Shown here: positions 8,271 to 22,473 of the stretch, in pieces
How positions within the stretch are numbered: position 1 is the first letter of the stretch
How the letters are laid out: each line of letters begins with the position of its first letter
Assembly (NCBI GenBank): GCA_011364965.1
Contig: RDOB01000004.1
Coordinates: forward strand, 1 to 64,000
DNA length: 64,000 nt
From: Candidatus Heimdallarchaeota archaeon
GTDB taxonomy: Archaea; Asgardarchaeota; Heimdallarchaeia; Hodarchaeales; Hodarchaeaceae
Reading direction: 5' to 3'
Made by a program: the position numbers and the translations under genes
Notes under the pieces: model-generated
Database searches by the model: none
Told to the model about the DNA's origin: nothing
What the model saw: only the letters and a program-made list of their open reading frames with translations

Positions 8271-9278
8271 TTATCTTGGTATATGACGGGGAGAGATCCT
8301 TTCATGACAAATAGGACAATGTCCGAACACTTTCAACCATTCTAAAAGATGATTACTATGGAAGGCATTCTCACAATGAGGACATGTTATACGGGGTTCT
8401 GAAGACTGAATGTTATGTCTACATATAACGCAATGGCTTATTTCTGTTCTTGATATGGTTTGTACCCGAGAACTGGTTCGAATTATTTGGTTAACTGCTA
8501 AAATTGAATCCCCGTTTGTTTTTTGAAATAAACTCCCACTTATTTCTCCTTGATCTAATGCATGATTTAATATCTGGTTTATTAATTGAGAATCTATCGT
8601 TTTGTCTTTAAAGTACTTCATTACCTTATAGACAAGGTAATCTGACTCAATTTGATTCCTAGGACGATTAATAATCTTATCAATCGAGTTGTATAAAATT
8701 CTTTTTGTATCAATCAGAAAGAGGATCTTTTCTCGTTTTACTTCTATCGTATCCAAGGTATTAGAAGCAAATTTTTGTATCGCATGCAGAATTGATTGTA
8801 TCTCTTCTGTATTCATTGGAGCTGAATTTATATAGAGTTCAGTTGAACAGTCATCCATCAACGTTTTTATTTCAGAATGTAGTTCTTCTAGTTGCAATAA
8901 TACTTCCTTGAAAACACTTAATGGTTGCATAGGTTCAACTAATTCCACTAAAACAGCTGTTTTTTGAACTTTAAGTCTTCTTTCTCCTAATTCTTCAATA
9001 TAACGAGAAACTTCAATAAAAAAGGGCTTTCTAAAATGCTTATTAATTAGATAAACGCCAGTTATTATTGCTAAACAGCTTCCGAGTATAAAGATTTGAT
9101 CAATATTAGTGATTACACCTGAATTGAATCCAGTAAGAAGAATAAACCCACTGGATACTAAAACAATTAGAATGATGACATTTCCTGTGGTTTTATTCCG
9201 TGCGAGTCGAGAAAGTTTGGTGATGTTTGAAGCCATACCTACACCTTTAATAACACAGGAGCAAATGAAATAGATCAC
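8271..9278 (-). CDS. Membrane-anchored RING-finger protein (putative E3 ligase)
   Basis: Two N-terminal TM helices, a coiled/helical middle region, and C-terminal CVIC...CPHC...FH..H..EWL...CPIC. Likely start is ATG at 9236. Confidence 0.8.
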   Translation of the reverse strand: MIYFICSCVIKGVGMASNITKLSRLARNKTTGNVIILIVLVSSGFILLTGFNSGVITNIDQIFILGSCLAIITGVYLINKHFRKPFFIEVSRYIEELGERRLKVQKTAVLVELVEPMQPLSVFKEVLLQLEELHSEIKTLMDDCSTELYINSAPMNTEEIQSILHAIQKFASNTLDTIEVKREKILFLIDTKRILYNSIDKIINRPRNQIESDYLVYKVMKYFKDKTIDSQLINQILNHALDQGEISGSLFQKTNGDSILAVNQIIRTSSRVQTISRTEISHCVICRHNIQSSEPRITCPHCENAFHSNHLLEWLKVFGHCPICHERISPRHIPR

Positions 9279-10463: not shown

Positions 10464-11219
10464 TTGAGAATGGTTCGACTGAAAGCAGTACATATCATCA
10501 CTGAAGAAGGGTTTACTATCTATAATCAATCTTTTGGAGCCACAGAACAGGATCAGGATATGGTAGGTTCTTTGATTATGGCTCTAACCTCATTTGGAAA
10601 GGAGGCTATGGGAGAATCATTATCCTCGTTAGCTTTTGGAAAAGAGGAGGAGGGCAAAGGGGGAGCAGATATGATATTGGAATCAGGAGATAGAATTATT
10701 TCTATCGCGATTGTTGTTCTTGATAAAGATCATAAAGAAAGAGAGGAATATAAAATTCGTAATGACTTGCGAAGATTCACAAAAGAAGTGGAAAGAATCT
10801 ATGCAGACGATTTGAATGACCCCATTTTTCAAAAAAGTGCATTTTCGGGAGTAGGAACGCTTATCTTTTCCATATTCTTCCGCGACATGATGTCACGTAT
10901 TTATAACCAAGATTTTGCGAGCCTAAGTGAATATATTCGGTTCCCAACTACTTTACTTTTTGAAATTACACCTCGTGGCCCAAAACTCTATGGTTTCTAT
11001 CGTGAGTTTCCAGCATTTAAAGAGGCAATGCTAGGGATCCCCATTGAAGAATTTGACAAAATAATTGAAAACATGCAAGACAGAAATAGTATGGTTTCCT
11101 TCAAGGACTGCTTAGAAAGTTTTGGTATAGAAAAAGGTGGTCAAATACTGGAAGTTTTCAAATTTCTTACAAAACGAGGTATGTTTGAGGCATATAATTT
11201 TGAACGAATCGACTCGTAA
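10464..11219 (+). CDS. Longin-like domain protein with C-terminal helical/wH-like domain
   Basis: AVHIITEEGFTIYNQSF...DMVGSLIMALTSFGKE...F.KEVE..Y matches the longin-like pattern common in Asgard proteins. Confidence 0.65.
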   Translation: MRMVRLKAVHIITEEGFTIYNQSFGATEQDQDMVGSLIMALTSFGKEAMGESLSSLAFGKEEEGKGGADMILESGDRIISIAIVVLDKDHKEREEYKIRNDLRRFTKEVERIYADDLNDPIFQKSAFSGVGTLIFSIFFRDMMSRIYNQDFASLSEYIRFPTTLLFEITPRGPKLYGFYREFPAFKEAMLGIPIEEFDKIIENMQDRNSMVSFKDCLESFGIEKGGQILEVFKFLTKRGMFEAYNFERIDS

Positions 11220-11227
11220 GGATTTCT

Positions 11228-12058
11228 CTATTTTTCGGATGCTTTCATTGCATTAATTATAAGAGCGGTCATTTTTTTCACTTCCTTCCGAGTTTCGGAC
11301 AATTCTGACTTTATTTCGCTCTCTATGACAGCGTTCATTTCTTGTTTCATTGCTTCAGGAAGATTTGCAACACGATTTATTAGCTGATCGGTTTTTAGTG
11401 TTAACTGTTTAATTGCAGTCTCTTGGGACACTAAACGTTCTGTTACAGATGTTTTTAATTCGTTCACGGATGCTTCGAGATAAATAGCAATTCTATCTCT
11501 TAAAGATGCTAATTCAACCTGAATTATAGCATTTACACGATCGCGCAGGTCTGCAACCGTTGCTAGTTGATCAGTCTGATTTTGAATCAAAGCATTTAGA
11601 CTATCTTCTATTCTTTTGACTTGTTCAAGAATAGACACAAAATTATTCACAGTTGCCTCATATTGCCCTTTAGTAGTAGATGCAGCCTCTTTTACAATTT
11701 CCGTTATCTCATTCGATAAATTACGCATACTAACGACAACGTCTTCTACATAACTTACCTTTATAAACTTCAAATCGTTTCGGGTTTCTTCAGTGGTCTT
11801 TTCAAAGGTTCTTTGGATCGCATTTAATGCTTCTGTAAGATTAGAGATCATTGTTGGGAGGTTTTTAATTGAATTTTGCAAAGAAGTATCAATTTTTGAA
11901 TCTTCTAGAATTGAAGTTATCACAAGCATTTGTCTCTGTAGTTCATGGGCACTTGCTTGGAATTCTTCTGTCAAATTACTTGATCCAAACCTATCAATGC
12001 TCTCCTTAAGCTTCAATGTCATTCGTAAGATTTCATTGACATTATCTTCTAGACCCAT
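11228..12058 (-). CDS. Long coiled-coil/helical protein
   Basis: Heptad-like hydrophobic periodicity over most of its length; no TM segment. SD-like GAGGGT upstream. Confidence 0.7.
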   Translation of the reverse strand: MGLEDNVNEILRMTLKLKESIDRFGSSNLTEEFQASAHELQRQMLVITSILEDSKIDTSLQNSIKNLPTMISNLTEALNAIQRTFEKTTEETRNDLKFIKVSYVEDVVVSMRNLSNEITEIVKEAASTTKGQYEATVNNFVSILEQVKRIEDSLNALIQNQTDQLATVADLRDRVNAIIQVELASLRDRIAIYLEASVNELKTSVTERLVSQETAIKQLTLKTDQLINRVANLPEAMKQEMNAVIESEIKSELSETRKEVKKMTALIINAMKASEK

Positions 12059-12169
12059 ATTTTACCCTCGCATAGGATTTTAATTCGTTTAATACTAAGA
12101 TTAAAGATTAGATATGATATTTCATTTTTTGCTTTGAAATTCGATTCTATTCTTTATCCTTTTGGGATA

Positions 12170-13195
12170 TTATTTGAGACTTCTTAAAAATGTTTTAAAT
12201 CGGTTATTGTTCAATATTGAATCATTTAGTCGATGAATCAAAATTACTGTTTCCGAATTGATCAACTGCTTGAAATCATTTCCGATACTCTCATTGAGAT
12301 CATTATACGTTTCTTTGGCTATTATATATGATATATTTGGAATTCTTGATTCTAAATCCCCCGCTCCTAGATTGTAATTCTGGAGGATACCTTCCGATAT
12401 CCGAAATGAATCACTTAAAGAATAACTACCCTCCGCGTATTTTGAAATGCTCTCAAAGTATCTTTTTACCACATTCATTATATCTAACTCATCATCGGGA
12501 GTTAGTAATGAGGCTTCATCATTAGGATACATCTTTTTTAAATTCTGGAGAAGTCTAGCGGAAGGAGCCTCTCTAAGTAATTTGGCGATTAGAGCTTGAA
12601 TTCGCAAAACTGGAATTTGAATTACCTCATTACTATTGATTAAAGCTTGAATCGATCCTGATTCATACTTCAACAATTCCTGACAAGCGGTAAAATAATA
12701 CTTGGGAATTGCTAGATGAGATAAATTCGAATATCCAGTAAAAAGGGTAGTAATGTGTTCAAGAATCCCCCATCGATCTGTAAAATCAATGTTTCTCGAA
12801 AATAATCCTATTTTTTCAGTTTCTTCTTCTAATATTCTCCTAGGTGACCTTAAAATGCTTTTATCTATTATTTTTCCCTCTAAAATAGTAATTAGCAAAT
12901 TATTTAATTTTTCTACTTGGTCATGTAATTGAGGAGTTGATTTTGGATTTTCTAACAGTTTTTCAGTAATAGATTTTATATTATTTAATTCTTCTATTGT
13001 TTGGTTAGATAATATTTTTGAATTTTCAAGATCAAGAACCAATGATGATAGTAGATGAAGTATTGAAACATTGAAACCCAAAATTATATTCATTTTCTCT
13101 CCAAGATTTCCTCTGCTAGTCCAGAAATCAATTTCACCTAACTTAGAGGATTCGTTTCCTGTTTGATTTTTTATCTGGGAATGTTCATCATCCAA
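12170..13195 (-). CDS. Helical hypothetical protein, co-operonic with the tubulin-like gene
   Basis: TTG start 14 nt after the tubulin-like stop, preceded by GAGGT. Confidence 0.7.
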   Translation of the reverse strand: MDDEHSQIKNQTGNESSKLGEIDFWTSRGNLGEKMNIILGFNVSILHLLSSLVLDLENSKILSNQTIEELNNIKSITEKLLENPKSTPQLHDQVEKLNNLLITILEGKIIDKSILRSPRRILEEETEKIGLFSRNIDFTDRWGILEHITTLFTGYSNLSHLAIPKYYFTACQELLKYESGSIQALINSNEVIQIPVLRIQALIAKLLREAPSARLLQNLKKMYPNDEASLLTPDDELDIMNVVKRYFESISKYAEGSYSLSDSFRISEGILQNYNLGAGDLESRIPNISYIIAKETYNDLNESIGNDFKQLINSETVILIHRLNDSILNNNRFKTFLRSLK

Positions 13196-13209
13196 AATGG
13201 TCTAACCTC

Positions 13210-14574
13210 TTATTTTTGTTCTGGTTTCATATAATATCCGAATAATTTTTCCAAATCTTGAACTGCGTTCTGTAATTCCGCTTGTGTAGTCCCTTTTGAA
13301 CGCTTAAACCAATGTTGTTTTAGTTCTGAATCACCACTATGTAGCTCTATCAAAGACTTTGCCTCCTCAAGTAAATTATATAACTCAGGCACTTTGGGTA
13401 ATCCGAATAATAATAAAAGTGATGATTTTATCTTATCATCATCAAAAGCACAATAAGTTGGAGATATGCTAGCACCTTTTGCTAAGAAAGGAGTTAATGC
13501 CTTTTTTAGAAGTGGGTCGAATTCCACCCTTGCAATATCTTTGGGTCCACTGAGAACAGAGAAAACAGAGGATGCTCCTGGATTAGTACCCATATATGTT
13601 AAGCTACAATTCGCGGCAGTATATTCTACGGCAGTAGAGAGCTGAGAACCGACTCCACCGATTTCTGGAAAAATAGATAAATCATCATACATTGCAGGTA
13701 CAACAACACTATCCAATTTCAACGCAAAATCACCAATATCAGTAGTGGGTAAAACCTCCTTTCCAATTTCTGGAACACCAGGAGAAAGCATTTCTGCAAT
13801 GCAATCCAAAGCTAAAGGATTAATTAATTCAACAAATTCTTCTTCCATCTTTACAGGGAGGTCTGTTGATACTTGTCCTAAAACATTAGGGGTTGATGTC
13901 CTTCTTACCTCTGCACTTACATCTGCTAAGTCTAAACCAGTTTTACTCAGCAGATCGACTGATTCTCCTCGCTGCATACTCAAGACACGATTAAGCATTG
14001 TACGATTTGATAGGAGAAGAATTAAATCTGGTCCCATATTTCCCTCTTCAAGTTGAAGACGAAGAAGACGAGATAATGCCCAGATACTATTAACTGCCTC
14101 CGATGATTGATTGTCGAACGGAAGAACCCCAAAAACATAGATGAAAATTTTTCGTTTTTCCTCTTTTGCAAATCGCTCACGAAGTAACCTAATTAAAGCA
14201 GGGGTTCCCCCACATCCAGTACCTCCACCAAAGGAAGTAAAAATGCAAAAACCGCTAATCCCCTCATATCCTAATCCTTGTAATTGGTTTAGTATAATAT
14301 CTTGAGAATTCATTACTGCATCATAACCAGCAGAAAATTTTCCTCCGACACCTATTTCAGCGTCTGAATAGAGTAAAGTTCGTTTTTTAGATATAGAATA
14401 TTTTTTTCGTGCTTTAAGAAGATCCCCGCGATCAGTATTCATTACCAAGTATTCTCGGATTCTGGGGGGAAGTTCTCCTTTTTTTGATTTTGCTAAATAA
14501 CTTCCTACAAGATTTGAACCGCATTCACCAATTCCAATTGCAAAAATTTCAGATTCTGGAGCTTCAACTGTCAT
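13210..14574 (-). CDS. Divergent tubulin/FtsZ-superfamily GTPase
   Basis: T1 GIGECGSNL, T2 NTDRGDL, T3 GVGG, T4 signature GGGTGCGG, VLPF, T7-like TDIGDF, and a tubulin-like C-terminal HWF...G....EL..A..DL..L...Y. SD GGAGGA at 14581-14586. Confidence 0.92.
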   Translation of the reverse strand: MTVEAPESEIFAIGIGECGSNLVGSYLAKSKKGELPPRIREYLVMNTDRGDLLKARKKYSISKKRTLLYSDAEIGVGGKFSAGYDAVMNSQDIILNQLQGLGYEGISGFCIFTSFGGGTGCGGTPALIRLLRERFAKEEKRKIFIYVFGVLPFDNQSSEAVNSIWALSRLLRLQLEEGNMGPDLILLLSNRTMLNRVLSMQRGESVDLLSKTGLDLADVSAEVRRTSTPNVLGQVSTDLPVKMEEEFVELINPLALDCIAEMLSPGVPEIGKEVLPTTDIGDFALKLDSVVVPAMYDDLSIFPEIGGVGSQLSTAVEYTAANCSLTYMGTNPGASSVFSVLSGPKDIARVEFDPLLKKALTPFLAKGASISPTYCAFDDDKIKSSLLLLFGLPKVPELYNLLEEAKSLIELHSGDSELKQHWFKRSKGTTQAELQNAVQDLEKLFGYYMKPEQK

Positions 14575-14585
14575 TTAAAATCCTC

Positions 14586-17500
14586 CTAAACATCCAGCTT
14601 TGTATTACTTTTTATTTCGATTAATAATTTCATAACAAGAGACAAGTATGCCTGAATCACCTCATTATGAGGATAAGTTTCTTTAATTTTCTTTGATATT
14701 TCTTTATATTGACGAATGTTCTCTTCTGCATTATCAGTAGGGGTATAACGCGGACGAAACATTCGGATAGCTCTATGCCAGCGATTTAACTGGATAGATA
14801 CATCTTTCCATTTCTCCCTTTGGGTATCAATTTCTGGTAATAAATCTAATATAAATCGTAAATTATGAGAATCCATCAAATCTTCTCTCAATTCGATTAA
14901 GGTGGACAACGGGAAAATTTTACTAGATGCTTCTTCTATGTACCGTTTAAATACTTCTTGAATGCTCGTATAATATTCTAATTGCCCTAAAGATCCTTGA
15001 AGAGTAGTATTTCGATCTTTTTCTATAGTTTTCATCAATTGAATAATCGTACTGCGAACGTGAGCAACTTCTAATATTGCAGTTGTCAGATGTCCTATAT
15101 GGTTTGTCGTGGCTGTTGTTTGAAATCTGTTCAAATAAGATAAATCGACTCGTTCATCGCGTCTAAGATCTTGTTGATAATTCAAAAAAACATACTCTAT
15201 GCTTTCTTGTATCTCTGCTATATATTGCTCTCCCATCTTACGGATCTCATTACATGCATTTGGATCTGTCTGGAGGTTGTCAATTTCCACAAAAACTTCC
15301 GTAATTTCCTTGATCTCTACATCTTCTTGATTCTTTACAATTATTTGTGAAAATCTCTCAATATAGCCTCCAACATGAGAAATTATGTTGATTCCCACTT
15401 CTTTTAAATCATTGACATTTTTCAATACTTTGCGAGATTCTTGGACAGCCTGAGCTAATAATTCTGATACTATTTCTGTATCATAGAGGAAAATCAATTG
15501 TCGTAAGTTATTTGCTATTCGCTCATGAGAAATCTCATCTATCTGAAAATTAAGGATTTTTTGCTCCGCAGCATAAACCCTAGGATCTAAGGGTATTATT
15601 TCATTTATTCTGGGTAAACTTACACGTAACCAACTATATAGATTTTGGTGAAGGCCAGCTAAACAATCTTTTGCCATTTGCAAACTTTCTAAGCTATAAC
15701 TCTCAAAAACATTGACTAATCGTGTAATATCCTTATGAGTTTTGATCTCTTTTCTTTTATCTTCCATAAGTTTGACTAAATCATTAAAAAAGTGTCCATA
15801 TTGAAGTGGTAATTTAGAATAATCTTGTATGTGAGAGGAAAGCTCACGTTCCATCTGTTCAGCGATGGTAGAAATTCTTCGATCTATATAGGCTTGTAAT
15901 TGCCAATATTCGGTCAAAGCTTCTGAATAATCAAGATTACTTAATTCTTTTTCGGCGGGGTACTTCACACTACCTGTTTGAGATTGAAGAAGCCTGCTGA
16001 GCCTTTTATCAACTCTTTCAAGGTTTTCAATATGCTTTTTTATTTCAACCAAAATTTCATTTTTATTTTCTTCAATTGCTTCTAGGAACGTTATGTATTC
16101 TTTAATCACAGCTTCCACATTTCCAGTTTCTGCGTGTTTATCGATAAGAGAAATGAACTGGTTTCTCTTTTCTCTTAAATCAAACTCAGTTTCGATTGGT
16201 AACAGCGGAAACGGAATATTTTTTAGATTATCTCTTACCCGGGAAATTATTTTAAATTTCCAAACGGGTATCTTTTCATATTCATCTAATAGGCTTTGAA
16301 TACTGTCATCTGCTGCAATGTTTAGATCTTCACGAATAGTCTTCAAATCCTCTAGGTCTAATGGGGGAACATGTGCCTTAAGTTTGGGAGGGATTGTTTC
16401 TAAGTTAGTGAATTGATTAAAAATTGGGTGGATTTCTTGGTCAATCGAGGTCCATATTTCAATTTTAATGTCAGCATTAAGACGATTAAGCACCTCAATT
16501 TCCTTAACAAGCTCACGAATTTCTTTATCCTCAACCTCTTTACGATTCTTTTGCTCTTGTATGCGTTTGGTTAGTTCTTCTGAGAGGATTCCTCGTAAAC
16601 TTTCACGTGAATCATATAAATTGAACAGGTTTTGACGCATTGCCATTTGGGCTGGTTTTGAGAAATATGCAATTAACCGAGTCTCCCAATCTTTAATTTC
16701 TCGCACTTTATTAACTAATTCACTTGGTGAAAGCGTTTCAAAGTCACGGACTGTGGGGACTTGAGGACCATCGCTTACATTAATTACTTCTTGTATGTAG
16801 GGATTCTCTAACAATCTGAAGAAATAATTTTGGCATTCCTCACTTAATTGCGATTTTATATCGTAGTATTGTTTAATTATATGTACCCAATCTTGAAGGT
16901 CAGTTATTTTTTCAGCATCTTTCTCAATCTGCCGAATTAAATCAACAAAACCTTCAGGAAGGGGTATTTTCATTGCATTTATGGTTTTGCCTGCGTTGAT
17001 TAGCTCAGCAGGGGTAATAATTTTTTTTACTGCTATTATTTGTTGTTGATGCCAAGAACGTACCTTTTCTATATCTTGGATTATACTAGGAATTGAAGAG
17101 GAAGAAACATCAATTTCAGGAGCAGGTTTTAAATTCGATTCAGAAGATTCTTTACCTATTATTTGCATGATTCTACCAATTTGATCATCCGTTTCAGTTT
17201 TCAAAGCGATCTCATAGGTTCTTAATGCGTTTATAAGCTCATTTGCGTGATTATTTAGCGTTTTTTCAATCTCTAATAGATTTTCTACCGATTTTGCATT
17301 ATCTGCTTCAGATTGAATATCTTTAATTTGCTGTTTCAATGCTTGGGGCTTATCTCCTAAATCTAGCCCTATTGAAGAGATGGTATCTAAATGCTGTAAT
17401 ATTTCAGATGACAGTTGAACAATAGCAACTTGAATTTTACCCTTTGTTCCTTTGCGACGCTGTTTCAAGTAAGCATTCTCTGCTTCAAGCTGATCGTATA

Positions 17501-18095
17501 GATTGAGAAGATCGGAAATTGATAAGACATGAATACTTGTTTTAGTAGTCTGACTTGTAATACGAATTTTCTCTTCGTCAAAATCGACGAATTTCTCGTA
17601 TAATTCGATAACTTCGCGATTAAAAGCTAATACAGATAAATTTTTTCCTCTCAAAACTTCTGAAATCTCGTTGTAGGTTTTTAGTACACTAGCACTGAAT
17701 TTTACGATCTGAGAGGGATCGAAACTTGGGATTTGCAATTTTTTAATGGTTTCTGTTTCTTGAGGTATGAATTTCGCTATTTCCTTGATGTTATTTGCCA
17801 AGTCAAAGTAAATTTTACGATACCCAACAAGTAGAGTATTAAGTAGGCTTTCATTTAATTGATTATACTTCTCCATATATTGCTGATAATTTCTTTTCAA
17901 TCCTCTTTTCTTGAGAAAACCAGCTGAAGGAATATCATTTTGAAGCTTTTCTATTTCTCCCATTAATCTTTGGGCTTCGTTTAAGGATGGGACAACTTGT
18001 ACCGTGGGATCTAATGATCGAAGCTCTGTTGCCAAATCTCTTATTTTAAGGAGTACTTCTTTAGAAACAAGAAGTCCTTCAGTTTCTGAAGACAT
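14586..18095 (-). CDS. Giant all-alpha helical-repeat protein (1169 aa)
   Basis: Long ORF with no TM segment and recurring helix-capping/amphipathic units about every 65-70 aa. Its stop overlaps the SD of the tubulin-like gene. Confidence 0.8.
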   Translation of the reverse strand: MSSETEGLLVSKEVLLKIRDLATELRSLDPTVQVVPSLNEAQRLMGEIEKLQNDIPSAGFLKKRGLKRNYQQYMEKYNQLNESLLNTLLVGYRKIYFDLANNIKEIAKFIPQETETIKKLQIPSFDPSQIVKFSASVLKTYNEISEVLRGKNLSVLAFNREVIELYEKFVDFDEEKIRITSQTTKTSIHVLSISDLLNLYDQLEAENAYLKQRRKGTKGKIQVAIVQLSSEILQHLDTISSIGLDLGDKPQALKQQIKDIQSEADNAKSVENLLEIEKTLNNHANELINALRTYEIALKTETDDQIGRIMQIIGKESSESNLKPAPEIDVSSSSIPSIIQDIEKVRSWHQQQIIAVKKIITPAELINAGKTINAMKIPLPEGFVDLIRQIEKDAEKITDLQDWVHIIKQYYDIKSQLSEECQNYFFRLLENPYIQEVINVSDGPQVPTVRDFETLSPSELVNKVREIKDWETRLIAYFSKPAQMAMRQNLFNLYDSRESLRGILSEELTKRIQEQKNRKEVEDKEIRELVKEIEVLNRLNADIKIEIWTSIDQEIHPIFNQFTNLETIPPKLKAHVPPLDLEDLKTIREDLNIAADDSIQSLLDEYEKIPVWKFKIISRVRDNLKNIPFPLLPIETEFDLREKRNQFISLIDKHAETGNVEAVIKEYITFLEAIEENKNEILVEIKKHIENLERVDKRLSRLLQSQTGSVKYPAEKELSNLDYSEALTEYWQLQAYIDRRISTIAEQMERELSSHIQDYSKLPLQYGHFFNDLVKLMEDKRKEIKTHKDITRLVNVFESYSLESLQMAKDCLAGLHQNLYSWLRVSLPRINEIIPLDPRVYAAEQKILNFQIDEISHERIANNLRQLIFLYDTEIVSELLAQAVQESRKVLKNVNDLKEVGINIISHVGGYIERFSQIIVKNQEDVEIKEITEVFVEIDNLQTDPNACNEIRKMGEQYIAEIQESIEYVFLNYQQDLRRDERVDLSYLNRFQTTATTNHIGHLTTAILEVAHVRSTIIQLMKTIEKDRNTTLQGSLGQLEYYTSIQEVFKRYIEEASSKIFPLSTLIELREDLMDSHNLRFILDLLPEIDTQREKWKDVSIQLNRWHRAIRMFRPRYTPTDNAEENIRQYKEISKKIKETYPHNEVIQAYLSLVMKLLIEIKSNTKLDV

Positions 18096-19237: not shown

Positions 19238-21541
19238 ATGTCTGATGAATCTATTAAACCCCTCTTCTTAAAAGTGGCCGAAGCAAACCAAGGTGACGTT
19301 GGAAGAGGACTAGTCCGTATTGATTACCAGATAATGCGAGAACACAATCTCGAGACTGGGGATATCGTCGAAATATCTACTGATAGAGCAGGTGGAAGAA
19401 AAACTGGGGCATTAGTAATCCCTGGGAGAAGAGAAGATCGGGGAAAAAGGATTATTCGAATGGATGGCCTAATTAGAGGTAATGTTGGAACATCTTTAGG
19501 GGAAACTGTGAAAATAAGACCAATAAAGAAAAAAAAGGCGAAGAGGATTACGATAGCTCCAGCAGAAGAACGAATAAGGTTACTGGTCCGCTCTGACATA
19601 ATTCGTGAACGTTTACAGAATCATCCTATATCACGTGGGGATCTATTAGTTATTACGGGTCAGATCCGTAAAGTTCCACCTTCTGGTGGCCCAAGTGGAA
19701 CTGGTATGGATGACTTCATTTCTCGGTTTTTTGGAGCATCAAGTCCTGTAAGTTTGGGTGAAATCAAAGTCGTAGTTGTATCAACAGAACCAGAGGGAAT
19801 TGTTACAGTTGGGGAAACTACAGAAGTCAACATCATCGAAGAAGCACCAAAAGATTTGCGCATGATGCCTCGTGTGACTTATGAGGACATTGGAGGACTT
19901 TCAGAGGAAATTAAAAGGGTAAGGGAAATGATCGAATTACCCATGAAACATCCAGAGTTATTTGAGCGTCTTGGCATTGAACCTCCAAAAGGAGTGCTTC
20001 TTCATGGACCTCCAGGAACAGGAAAAACATTACTTGCCAAAGCAGTCGCAAATGAATCAGGGGTGAATTTTGTTTCAATTGCTGGACCTGAAATTATGTC
20101 CAAATTTTATGGTGAAAGTGAACAAAGAATCCGTGAGATCTTCCAGCAATCAGAAAAAGAAGCACCTAGTATTATATTTATTGATGAGCTGGATTCAATA
20201 GCAGCCAAACGGGAAGAGGTAACTGGAGAAGTTGAGCGACGGGTGGTTGCGCAATTACTTGCATTAATGGATGGATTGAAAAGCCGAGGAAAAGTAATTG
20301 TAATTGGTGCAACAAACCGTCCAAACGCACTTGACCCTGCTCTGAGACGCCCTGGGAGATTTGATCGTGAAATTGAGATTGGAGTTCCTGATAGAAATGG
20401 ACGCTACGAAGTGCTCTTAGTGCATACACGGGGAATGCCTCTTGCTGACGATGTAGATTTAGAACAAATTGCAGCGATAACACATGGATTTGTTGGCGCA
20501 GACATAGCAGCATTAGCAAAAGAAGCAGCAATGCATACACTACGCAAAATTCTTCCTAAAATTGACTTTGATAAACCTTTGTCTCCAGAAATTTTGCTTA
20601 AATTAGTAGTTTCAGAGGAGAATTTTGAAGAAGCACTAAAAGTCACTGAACCGTCAGCTATGAGAGAGGTATTATTGGAAATTCCCAACGTGAGATGGGA
20701 GGATGTCGGGGGTCTTGATGATGTTAAACAAAAACTTATAGAAGCAGTCGAATGGCCAATAGCCAATCCAGAAATCTTTAAACGCCATGGAATTCGACCC
20801 CCTCATGGTATCCTATTGTATGGCCCGCCAGGGACAGGAAAAACATTATTAGCGAAAGCTGTAGCTACAGAGAGCCAAGCAAATTTTATTGCAATCAGGG
20901 GCCCTGAATTGCTTTCCAAATGGGTGGGAGAAAGTGAAAAAGCAATAAGAGAAGTGTTCCGAAAAGCCAAACAAGCTGCTCCATCCATCATCTTTCTAGA
21001 TGAACTTGATGCTATAGCTCCACGAAGAGGAGCATTTACTGGAGGAAGTCATGTGATGGAAAGTGTTGTTAATCAAATTTTGTCCTTAATAGATGGATTG
21101 GAAAACTTAAGAGATGTAGTCATTTTAGCAGCAAGTAACAGACCTGATATGATTGATCCAGCTTTACTACGGCCAGGCCGATTTGATAGAGTCCTTTTAG
21201 TTAAACCACCTGACACAGAATCAAGAGAAAAGATACTAAAAATCCATACAAAAGGAATGAAATTAGCAAAAAATGTAGATCTTCCCCAGCTGGCTAAAGA
21301 TTTAGAATGGTACGTTGGTGCTGATATTGAAGCCATCTGTCGTGAAGCAGTTATGACAGCACTTCGTGAAGATATCAACACTGATTTTATTACTATCGAT
21401 CATTTCAAAGAAGCTTCTAAGGCTATTCACCCGAGTACTAGTGAGGATATAATCAAAAAATTTGAGGAAATGGAAAGACAATTACTTGGAAAATCAGAAA
21501 TTGGGCGAAAGGATTTACTAGGGTTAAAAGATTACCTCTAA
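19238..21541 (+). CDS. cdc48: CDC48/VCP AAA+ ATPase
   Basis: N-domain plus two AAA modules (GPPGTGKT twice, IIFIDELD / [17 protein letters not shown] / ALLRPGRFD). Confidence 0.97.
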
Positions 21542-22473
21542 GGCGATTTATAGATATCTAGAGGCCATTGCTTTTGCATTAATTTTAATAAAATTCGAGA
21601 GTCAAATTGATCCATTTCTATCGGACTGGTAGAAGTTTTCATCAGTCTCTCCGCTATTAATTTTGCACGAACCACTGAATCTGAATATCCTATAATAAGT
21701 CCTATTACTAATGGATGATTCTTCACAACAACTAATTGTAAATCAGAGGCGGTTAACACTTCCATCCCTGTTGATTCTTTGTTCAACTCGCTCATTGTTT
21801 CATTAATGCCCTTATTCAGCTGATCAAGTACAGTTGTAGAGATATTTGTGAATTTAGTTGTGTAGATTTGATTCGTTTCAAGATCTATCAGTATTACAAC
21901 CCGAACTTTGCATTTAAAACGAGATTCTTCTCCAGCTATGACATCTGCTAACCAATCAAATGCATCATAAAAATTTTCACCAGTTTTAGCTGAAATCCTA
22001 AACAATCCGACTGGTCTTGCCGATCTTGCAGCTCTGGGGAGATCTAAGTCCTTAACGATCAAATCAAATGACCGTGAACCAGGGAGATCAATTTTATTGG
22101 CAATGAAAAGAACGGGAACCTTATCATTCTGCTGTATTGAGTTCCAAAATGCTTCTGATGCTTCTGATATTCTTATATCAGCACTATCAAGCACAAATAC
22201 TATTGCTGATGCCTTTTTTATTGAGTCATGCCAGAGAAGATTACGATAGATTTGTTGTCCACCCAAATCAACTAAATTAAATTCAATTTGTCTATAACGA
22301 ACGGTACGGTAATTCACTCCTAGAGTTCGTGTGGTAGGAATAAATTCAGAACGAAGTAAACGATTAACAATTGTGGTTTTCCCAGCACCATCAAGACCAA
22401 TAATTGCGATCTCGTATTTCTCGGATTCTTTTGCATGGAATATCCGCCGGAGGATGCTTGACACAGTTATCAC
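21538..22473 (-). CDS. Arf-like small GTPase fused to a C-terminal roadblock/longin-like domain
   Basis: GLDGAGKTT, TRTLG, DLGGQ, NKID, ISAK; N-terminal amphipathic SSILRRIF; about 125-aa alpha/beta C-terminal extension. Confidence 0.88.
   Translation of the reverse strand: MITVSSILRRIFHAKESEKYEIAIIGLDGAGKTTIVNRLLRSEFIPTTRTLGVNYRTVRYRQIEFNLVDLGGQQIYRNLLWHDSIKKASAIVFVLDSADIRISEASEAFWNSIQQNDKVPVLFIANKIDLPGSRSFDLIVKDLDLPRAARSARPVGLFRISAKTGENFYDAFDWLADVIAGEESRFKCKVRVVILIDLETNQIYTTKFTNISTTVLDQLNKGINETMSELNKESTGMEVLTASDLQLVVVKNHPLVIGLIIGYSDSVVRAKLIAERLMKTSTSPIEMDQFDSRILLKLMQKQWPLDIYKSP

Follow-up and report, generated by a model that had tools for sequence, protein, structure and literature searches.

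A conserved three-gene module around a tubulin-family GTPase in Asgard archaea, proposed as a membrane-tethered filament system

A 64,000-nt stretch of the genome of a Hodarchaeales (Asgard) archaeon, here called the window, encodes on its minus strand a tubulin/FtsZ-superfamily GTPase (gene B) between the genes of two helical proteins (A and C), and this A-B-C unit, with B in the middle, is carried by about one third of Asgard archaea. We put the odds at about even (probability roughly 0.5) that A, B and C represent a GTP-driven filament system in which A would be the membrane tether and which would shape the cell, not divide it. Work on Asgard tubulins has so far centred on AtubAB and OdinTubulin; the family PF03953 was found in 7 of 341 genomes, and Asg.Tub, the group to which B was assigned, in about 126 of 400. 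If the model holds, the module would be the commonest non-FtsZ tubulin-family system of Asgard archaea, together with two partner families without known kin; no experiments on it were found in the literature searched.

Gene A (positions 14586 to 18095; 1169 aa) is separated by 11 nt from gene B (13210 to 14574; 454 aa), B by 14 nt from gene C (12170 to 13195; 341 aa, TTG start), and C by 111 nt from a fourth gene, D (11228 to 12058; 276-aa long-helix protein). An SD-like motif, GGAGGA (14581 to 14586), precedes B and overlaps the last G of the TAG stop codon of A, and another, GAGGT (13205 to 13209), lies after the TAA stop of B, 9 nt before the TTG of C. This TTG start is credible, since a TTG or GTG start 14 nt past the stop codon of B recurs in many orthologues. 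The minus-strand open reading frames and motif positions thus confirm what a sequence-only reading had described, i.e. four co-oriented genes with these gaps and SD motifs. Its statement that no canonical division genes are adjacent was also correct: neither sepF nor ftsZ is among the genes flanking the locus, which are unrelated (CinA-like, Cdc48-like AAA, Arf GTPase and RING protein genes, and a convergent 251-aa gene). A, C and D matched no family above cut-off in Pfam, NCBIfam or PHROGs, in agreement with the claimed lack of a recognisable enzyme motif, and in PADLOC only D obtained a match, a weak one to a coiled-coil-type ZorA. Likewise, no clear transmembrane helix was found in A, C or D in a 19-residue hydropathy scan (best values 1.1 for A, 0.75 for D, and a borderline 1.8 for C, in a segment that forms one of its N-terminal helices in the AF2 model).

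Of 400 Asgard genomes, 129 contain the A family, 126 B and 123 C, all three within one set of nine families, and among the sampled Hodarchaeales and Thorarchaeia nearly all genomes carry the module; B and C occur together in 121 genomes, and the exceptions that could be placed are at contig ends. The A-B gap is below 150 nt in 65 of the 67 loci holding both genes and the B-C gap in 58 of 60, and order and tight spacing are kept across the nine families, with flanks that differ between families. The linkage is far beyond chance. Related genomes do not count independently, which leaves about nine families as independent observations. Strict coupling of A and B is not essential, since large, unrelated genes separate A from B or lie upstream of B in three genomes of this genus. 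Sequence identity between families is 38–72% for B and 15–41% for A. Three deep groups recur in the trees of A and B, and in both trees the adjoining Hodarchaeales paralogues A' and B' branch at the same place; the A-B pair was duplicated together. Agreement of the two trees is also expected from plain vertical descent. In the preferred reading, A-B-C is an ancient cytoskeletal module of Asgard archaea, passed on mostly by vertical descent.

That a tubulin-family protein and its helical accessory proteins form a dedicated module is supported by the order and spacing in nine families, the concordant trees and the modelled A-B complex (below), but the extension of this proposal to a four-gene system is not: D was found in 20 of the 400 genomes, all within this genus, and lies 90–302 nt past C among relatives, and several relatives show a T-run directly past C. 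The neighbourhood comparison that had been suggested as a check thus upheld A-B-C and left D aside as a lineage-specific neighbour, probably outside the core; on these comparisons, the conserved unit comprises three genes. D had also been called a coiled coil; its hydrophobic periodicity is 3.6–3.7, as against 3.5 for a clean heptad, so 'long amphipathic helix' is the safer label.

The B protein, ~440–480 aa in all families, matches the Pfam Tubulin family (PF00091) with 65.7 bits (cut-off 33); against PF13809 it scores 18 bits, below the cut-off of 27. It contains a T1 loop GIGECG (14518 to 14535; GxGECG conserved in 65 orthologues), a T4 signature loop GGGTGCGG (residues 116–123; 14206 to 14229; invariant or nearly so in the 65 orthologues), and a T7 loop PTTDIGD (residues 276–282; 13729 to 13749) with acids at the catalytic position, D279 and D282, both invariant among the 65; this loop aligns with T7 of the CetZ structure 3zid and is collinear with that of OdinTubulin. 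With these motifs, B is expected to bind GTP and, as judged from its family, to stack head to tail into dynamic protofilaments, in which the T7 aspartates of each subunit would activate the GTP of its neighbour. The nearest solved relatives are CetZs (4b46, E 5.5e-14; 3zid; 4b45), for the GTPase domain only. B shares 55% identity over 98% length with OLS26264.1 (P0081), a founding Asg.Tub member, its C-terminal half matches the published alignment (PMC9871819), and its named matches, among those listed, are all Asgard; by sequence, B is a member of this already named, CetZ-like and functionally uncharacterised clade. Two other assignments were rejected: as FtsZ, B scores 31.9 against a cut-off of 295.2 (TIGR00065), and as a bona fide tubulin it has no PF03953 match. 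PF03953 has no match in the host genome or in any family bearing Asg.Tub; OdinTubulin-like and AtubAB-like genes pass. A conserved C-terminal segment of B (residues 414–452; 13219 to 13335; W422, F423, K427 and G428 invariant) resembles, as a lead only, the H11'-H12 region of tubulins, whose mark is a hairpin with an aromatic-x-x-x-G loop, given 64.7% in pairwise hhalign against the OdinTubulin/AtubAB tails (reversed control, 0.5%) and a PDB-wide search that listed no tubulin and ranked a chance proteasome match first.

A canonical FtsZ is encoded on another contig of this genome (377.7 bits, TIGR00065), and this separate gene was counted in favour of the preferred reading of A-B-C. It is the only canonical FtsZ, and no SepF match (PF04472) was found in this 87%-complete genome, so that B might act in cytokinesis beside FtsZ, with A, which is laid out like an anchor, replacing SepF at the membrane. 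Such a second division filament is unlikely: B was not found in many Asgard families (e.g. 0 of 135 genomes in the largest), is far below the FtsZ cut-off (31.9 versus 295.2) and has CetZs, which do not divide cells (PMC12583498), as its nearest solved relatives; the SepF blank may stem from divergence or genome incompleteness.

The AF2 model of A consists of helices only (pLDDT 84.7, pTM 0.40), and offsets of ~130 aa between internal profile matches indicate degenerate ~130-aa units; orthologue lengths cluster near 900, 1025, 1140–1185, 1310–1330 and 1400 aa. A is pictured, as a proposal, as a flexible repeat rod of great length that would serve as both tether and spacer and would differ in size by whole repeats between lineages. 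Spectrin/plakin-like rods are built of tandem three-helix repeats of ~106 aa with the spectrin fold; the comparison of A with EzrA/spectrin-like rods is one of working principle, and no sequence relation was found. Both ends of A are conserved, an N-terminal hairpin and a C-terminal domain. The hairpin tip (residues 57–68, SAGFLKKRGLKR; 17892 to 17927), a turn between helices 35–54 and 60–101 in the AF2 model, is hydrophobic and basic: here each of the 62 orthologues has a net charge of +2 or more (mean +4.5) and two or more hydrophobic residues, and in 42 of the 62 it is the most basic 12-mer of an overall acidic protein. The tip is a candidate membrane anchor, which may dip into the membrane's inner face. 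Such a tip could alternatively target DNA or an acidic protein in place of lipid.

Two alternatives assign A another task. First, A may cross-link or space B filaments in the manner of MAP65/PRC1, with C regulating turnover, as a cytoplasmic lattice or bundle without a membrane anchor. The scaffold and cross-linker roles proposed by the sequence-only reading agree with the form of A, a long rod of repeats predicted to bind B at one end, and with the lack of a clear transmembrane helix; we rank them below the membrane tether, as a possible but distinctly less probable reading, since they leave the conserved tip at the other end of A without a target and cross-linking would require dimerisation of A. 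Second, three-gene cassettes around a tubulin homologue are known from TubZ systems, and this layout, the basic tip and the single copy of B in most genomes would fit DNA segregation or positioning like TubZRC/PhuZ, i.e. B filaments moving the chromosome and C or the tip of A binding DNA. This, too, is improbable, as no iteron or centromere-like repeat array lies near the operon, A and C match no DNA-binding family, C is acidic, the module has no match in plasmids or PHROGs, and the operon resembles the remainder of the window in base composition, in a chromosomal context with housekeeping genes around.

Modelling of the tubulin homologue with its partners, which had been suggested earlier, placed A on B. 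With B as the partner the score was 0.74, against 0.00 for the best of three controls, one of which retained B and C with A replaced. In the calibration, 58 of 80 solved complexes and two of 110 mismatched pairs attained the score mark; it was set up differently from the A-B complex, which was modelled as three chains with custom alignments. The runs share at least 60% of contacts, with a partner pLDDT of at least 78. The predicted B-binding surface is A 1105–1147 (14655 to 14783; W1106, T1140, Y1141), which ranks within the top four of 1125 43-residue windows of A by conservation, and A contact residues are more conserved than the remaining folded fragment (0.54 versus 0.41; permutation p 0.005). 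On B, the predicted face is residues 298–322 (13609 to 13683), the M-loop and helix H9 by collinear alignment; the mean conservation of its contact residues is below that of the whole protein (0.47 versus 0.65), with G306, D298 and Q311 as conserved ones. The model supports binding of the conserved A C-terminus to the M-loop/H9 face; A would thereby dock on the side of B, leave the head-to-tail faces free, and probably also limit sideways bundling. A lateral position could also block sheet formation, and operons are occasionally split, as if A were an inhibitor or chaperone keeping B monomeric, or as if the linkage were regulatory only, without a stable complex. We consider this highly improbable: sequestering B would hardly call for a rod of 900–1400 aa whose far end is conserved, the T7 and GTP faces lie outside the contact, and the modelled complex passes its controls.

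The membrane-tethered filament would likely serve to control cell shape or remodel the membrane, in the way of CetZ1, rather than to divide the cell; the M-loop of CetZ1 is required for envelope association and rod shape (10.1101/2024.04.08.588506). C would be a dedicated accessory factor, i.e. a regulator, nucleator or adaptor; the duplicated A'-B' pair has no adjoining C. C (AF2 pLDDT 80) comprises three low-confidence N-terminal helices and a conserved, confident domain (~130–341, mostly >90), and its family is small and closed, with ~50 clusters among 1.8 billion representatives.

Asg.Tub was introduced as a CetZ-like Asgard group by Santana-Molina et al. 2023 (PMC9871819) from four sequences; the group was called sparse, and unknown coiled-coil neighbours were mentioned, but no conserved operon, partner families or function were described, whereas here it is found in 126 of 400 genomes with a fixed A-B-C order and a predicted A-B interface. 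The 'CetZ-related Asgard archaeal clade' that serves as an outgroup in 10.64898/2026.02.15.705738 is probably this group as well. By the published tree and HMM, Asg.Tub falls outside canonical CetZ, and the CetZ C-terminal HMM does not match it. CetZ1 and CetZ2 (cell shape, Haloferax volcanii) are, like B, single-subunit GTPases with the M-loop region as a functional surface, but their similarity to B is confined to the GTPase domain; no A- or C-type partners of cetZ were found in those parts of the CetZ literature that were searched.

The sequence-only reading had likened the locus to FtsZ-like operons with coiled-coil partners, from which it would differ in lacking vWA or kinase genes. The FtsZl1 operons (Makarova and Koonin 2010, PMC2875224) likewise combine a divergent FtsZ/tubulin homologue with helical components and a proposed membrane-remodelling role, and no vWA, kinase or OmpA genes, with which FtsZl1 sits, were found at the window locus or in annotated relatives. 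The comparison is loose, as B stands alone with an intact T7 loop and, at ~440–480 aa, is far shorter than FtsZl1, which carries its own coiled coil in a fusion of ~1000 aa and is without a recognisable T6-H7/T7 region (PMC2875224). The AtubAB and BtubABC mini-microtubules are also encoded in operons, BtubC being a helical binder encoded next door, but are alpha/beta-like heterodimers, whereas B is one divergent subunit without a PF03953 match; such genes occur in ~1% of Asgard genomes. FtsZ with its SepF or FtsA anchors resembles the module in working principle only, in that a tubulin-family polymer is held at the membrane by a soluble adaptor whose end is amphipathic; these anchors bind a C-terminal tail peptide, whereas A would bind the M-loop/H9 face.

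Cultures of Hodarchaeales are now available (10.1101/2025.02.26.640444), and cells from the environment have an elongated form with a polar bulge (PMC12077186); which factors other than actin give these cells their shape can thus be tested directly. The A-B model names exact residues for filament-binding and membrane-anchoring tests, and a widespread, uncharacterised cytoskeleton of the closest relatives of eukaryotes thereby becomes testable.

The OdinTubulin cassette of Odinarchaeia (~545-aa helical gene, tubulin, ~485-aa coiled-coil gene) has a layout like A-B-C, conserved in six genomes, and was found in two families without Asg.Tub, but OdinTubulin is a bona fide tubulin (PF03953), unlike B. 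That both derive from a single ancestral Asgard unit, made up of a membrane-tipped helical rod, a tubulin homologue and another helical partner, is a doubtful reading; Asg.Tub, having a tubulin-like H11-H12 tail and a side-binding tether of its own, would then have survived as an intermediate between CetZ and true tubulins, and A would be the oldest tubulin-binding cortical linker, still found in Hodarchaeales. C has no detectable relation to the downstream Odin gene (11.7%, out of register). The upstream Odin partner also starts with a hairpin ending G-hydrophobic-G-x-x-KK; with an HMM rank within background, the N-terminus of A reaches 42% against it in hhalign (controls up to 5.5%).

Four co-oriented genes lie on the minus strand of the window: gene A (14586-18095; 1169 aa), encoding a giant helical rod, gene B (13210-14574; 454 aa), encoding a tubulin-like GTPase, gene C (12170-13195; 341 aa, TTG start) and gene D (11228-12058; 276 aa). 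The intergenic gaps are 11 nt (A-B), 14 nt (B-C) and 111 nt (C-D), and two SD-like motifs, GGAGGA and GAGGT, are present; these positions, gaps and motifs are as described in a sequence-only reading, which had proposed a four-gene cytoskeletal operon. Base composition is uniform throughout the window. The host belongs to the Asgard order Hodarchaeales, as judged from the labels on close relatives of B.

Profiles of A, B, C and D were searched against one common set of 400 Asgard genomes. The numbers of genomes with a match were 129 for A, 126 for B and 123 for C, and the nine families concerned were identical for all three; B and C occurred together in 121 genomes, and each of the three was present in 32 of the 90 near-complete genomes. 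In the fetched loci the gene order was A-B-C without exception. Of the 67 loci holding both A and B, 65 had an A-B gap below 150 nt; for B-C the figure was 58 of 60. In effect, this linkage samples about nine lineages rather than 120 genomes. The genes flanking A-B-C vary between families, and the same three deep groups were found in the trees of A and B. Source labels assign some of the members to Hodarchaeales, Thorarchaeia, Baldrarchaeia and Asgardarchaeia. Neither the largest sampled family (0/135; probably Lokiarchaeia) nor the other searched families of Heimdallarchaeia yielded the module. A-B-C is thus a unit of three genes inherited together, and represents a real system. The neighbourhood comparison across Asgard genomes that the sequence-only reading had suggested upheld order, tight spacing and adjacency for A-B-C in nine families, but not the inclusion of D, which was found in 20 of the 400 genomes, every one from the genus of the window.

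D starts 90-302 nt after C across the relatives, a T-run directly follows the stop of C in several of them, and a link of D to the module was undetectable beyond the genus; D may be transcribed from a promoter of its own. Several relatives (L023, L025, L026, L037) share a conserved ~35-nt block (TTCGAAAATCTTTTAGAATC...) in the C-D gap, and a conserved GTGAGG precedes the start of D.

Eight genomes of the genus carry a second, adjacent pair, A'-B', with no C beside it; the genome of the window itself lacks this second copy. Both paralogues branch deep inside the Hodarchaeales clade, so the two were duplicated as a pair. A'-B' (L044-L051, e.g. L046:5562-13601) usually lies between a conserved 311-aa gene on its upstream side, co-oriented and assigned to no family, which may replace C, and a convergent downstream gene of about 740 aa with a RagA-like GTPase domain. 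In three genomes, related large Glu/Lys-rich genes (511-1202 aa, with internal duplication and no Pfam match) lie immediately upstream of B (L033:6166-9774, L030:5496-9622, L040:1634-5421), and A, where placeable, is 4-10 kb from B.

B matched the Pfam Tubulin model (65.7 bits; cut-off, 33), was below the cut-off of the FtsZ model (31.9 vs 295.2) and had no Tubulin_C match. Its closest solved relatives are CetZs, with the similarity confined to the GTPase domain. B is 55% identical, across 98% of its length, to OLS26264.1, a founding member of Asg.Tub, a group defined from four sequences and placed, with unstable support, between CetZ and tubulin; coiled-coil neighbours of unknown kind were remarked on (Santana-Molina et al. 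2023, PMC9871819). The GTPase clade is already named; in the literature searched, we found no second paper using the name, no experiments on the group, and no account of the conserved triplet, its reach, its partner families or the predicted interface. In 65 B orthologues, little or no variation is seen in motifs T1 (GxGECG) and T4 (GGGTGCGG) or at the T7 acids D279/D282; from this conservation, and by analogy with the family, B is expected to behave as an active, self-activating polymer. A separate, canonical FtsZ is encoded elsewhere in the genome. That B forms a second division filament is quite unlikely, even with one FtsZ and no SepF match (PF04472) in this 87%-complete genome.

Two observations are leads to a connection with true tubulins, one in B itself and one in the distribution and layout of tubulin genes. 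The last 40 residues of B, with invariant W422, F423, K427 and G428, align with H11'-H12 of OdinTubulin/AtubAB (64.7% vs 0.5% when reversed), a match that a PDB-wide search did not recover. Bona fide tubulins were found in 7 of 341 genomes, all from families without Asg.Tub. The six OdinTubulin-like genes each lie inside a conserved triplet of their own (L105-L110; about 545 aa, tubulin, about 485 aa; two families, six genomes); a published account describes the OdinTubulin neighbours as specific to a single genome. The upstream partner in this cassette opens with a hairpin (GIKGLFGAKKK) similar to that of A; the N-termini scored 42% in a profile comparison (controls at most 5.5%), with HMM searches within background, and common descent is possible. 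A tandem AtubAB-like tubulin pair was observed in a Heimdallarchaeia-class genome without Asg.Tub (L111:7098-9681).

A is helical throughout in its model (pLDDT 84.7, pTM 0.40), the pieces being confident and the overall shape uncertain. Its internal profile matches repeat every ~130 residues and orthologue lengths group near 900, 1025, 1140-1185, 1310-1330 and 1400, which indicates that the rod lengthens or shortens by whole units with both ends retained. The N-terminal end is a modelled helical hairpin with the turn SAGFLKKR; in 62 of 62 orthologues this turn carries two or more hydrophobic residues together with a net charge no lower than +2, and outside it A is acidic. A hydrophobic-plus-basic make-up is usual for peripheral membrane anchors, and the tip is a candidate for such an anchor; a purely cytoplasmic, cross-linked scaffold is an unlikely alternative reading of the assembly. 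DNA segregation is also quite unlikely, given that neither a repeat array nor a DNA-binding domain was found. Conservation in A is highest at the C-terminal end (about 1105-1155). For C, the model is confident over a helical domain at about 130-341, and the relatives of C form a small, closed family; no named family was found for A or C. One C orthologue (L057:11421-13229; 602 aa) is extended at its N-terminus by a long, acidic stretch of low complexity that is unrelated to D.

Modelling of the tubulin homologue with its partners, also suggested by the sequence-only reading, was performed with B 6-448, A 850-1165 and C 124-341, and B was scored. The complex scored 0.74 (best of three controls, 0.00, as also with A replaced), with at least 60% of contacts common to runs and partner pLDDT of at least 78. 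Among solved complexes, 58 of 80 attained the score mark, compared with 2 of 110 mismatched pairs; these counts are approximate here because three chains and our own alignments were used, unlike in the calibration. Every confident contact joins residues 1105-1147 of A to residues 199-203 or 298-322 of B. No solved relative of A was found, and recall of a known complex is therefore unlikely. Conservation of the A contact residues exceeds that of the remaining fragment (0.54 vs 0.41, p 0.005); the contact residues of B are no better conserved than B as a whole (0.47 vs 0.65). The model supports binding of the A C-terminus to B; sequestration or mere co-regulation of the two is very improbable. 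Read against OdinTubulin from T7 to S8, in an alignment made by eye without a model of B alone, B 298-322 corresponds to the M-loop and helix H9; with this lateral face occupied, A could attach along the protofilament without capping it. The M-loop of CetZ1 is required for envelope association and rod shape (10.1101/2024.04.08.588506).

A joint role of A and B in some kind of filament system is quite probable. In the full mechanism, to which we assign a probability of about 0.5, B, whose GTPase is intact, would polymerise, the C-terminus of A would sit on the side of B and its N-terminal tip would bind the membrane; the assembly would shape the cell or remodel membranes, with C as an accessory.

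In the surroundings, a convergent 251-aa gene (10464-11219, plus strand; no Pfam match) adjoins D in every case within the genus; it looks longin/roadblock-like by eye, and two weak paralogues in the genome match its N-terminal 125 residues. An Arf-family GTPase gene (21538-22473, minus strand; E 5e-34), encoding an additional C-terminal domain of about 130 aa, is convergent with a Cdc48/VAT-like AAA ATPase gene (19238-21541). A 335-aa protein (8271-9278, minus strand) combines two hydrophobic segments at its N-terminus and a helical central part with a RING finger at its C-terminus, and is possibly a membrane-anchored E3-like protein.
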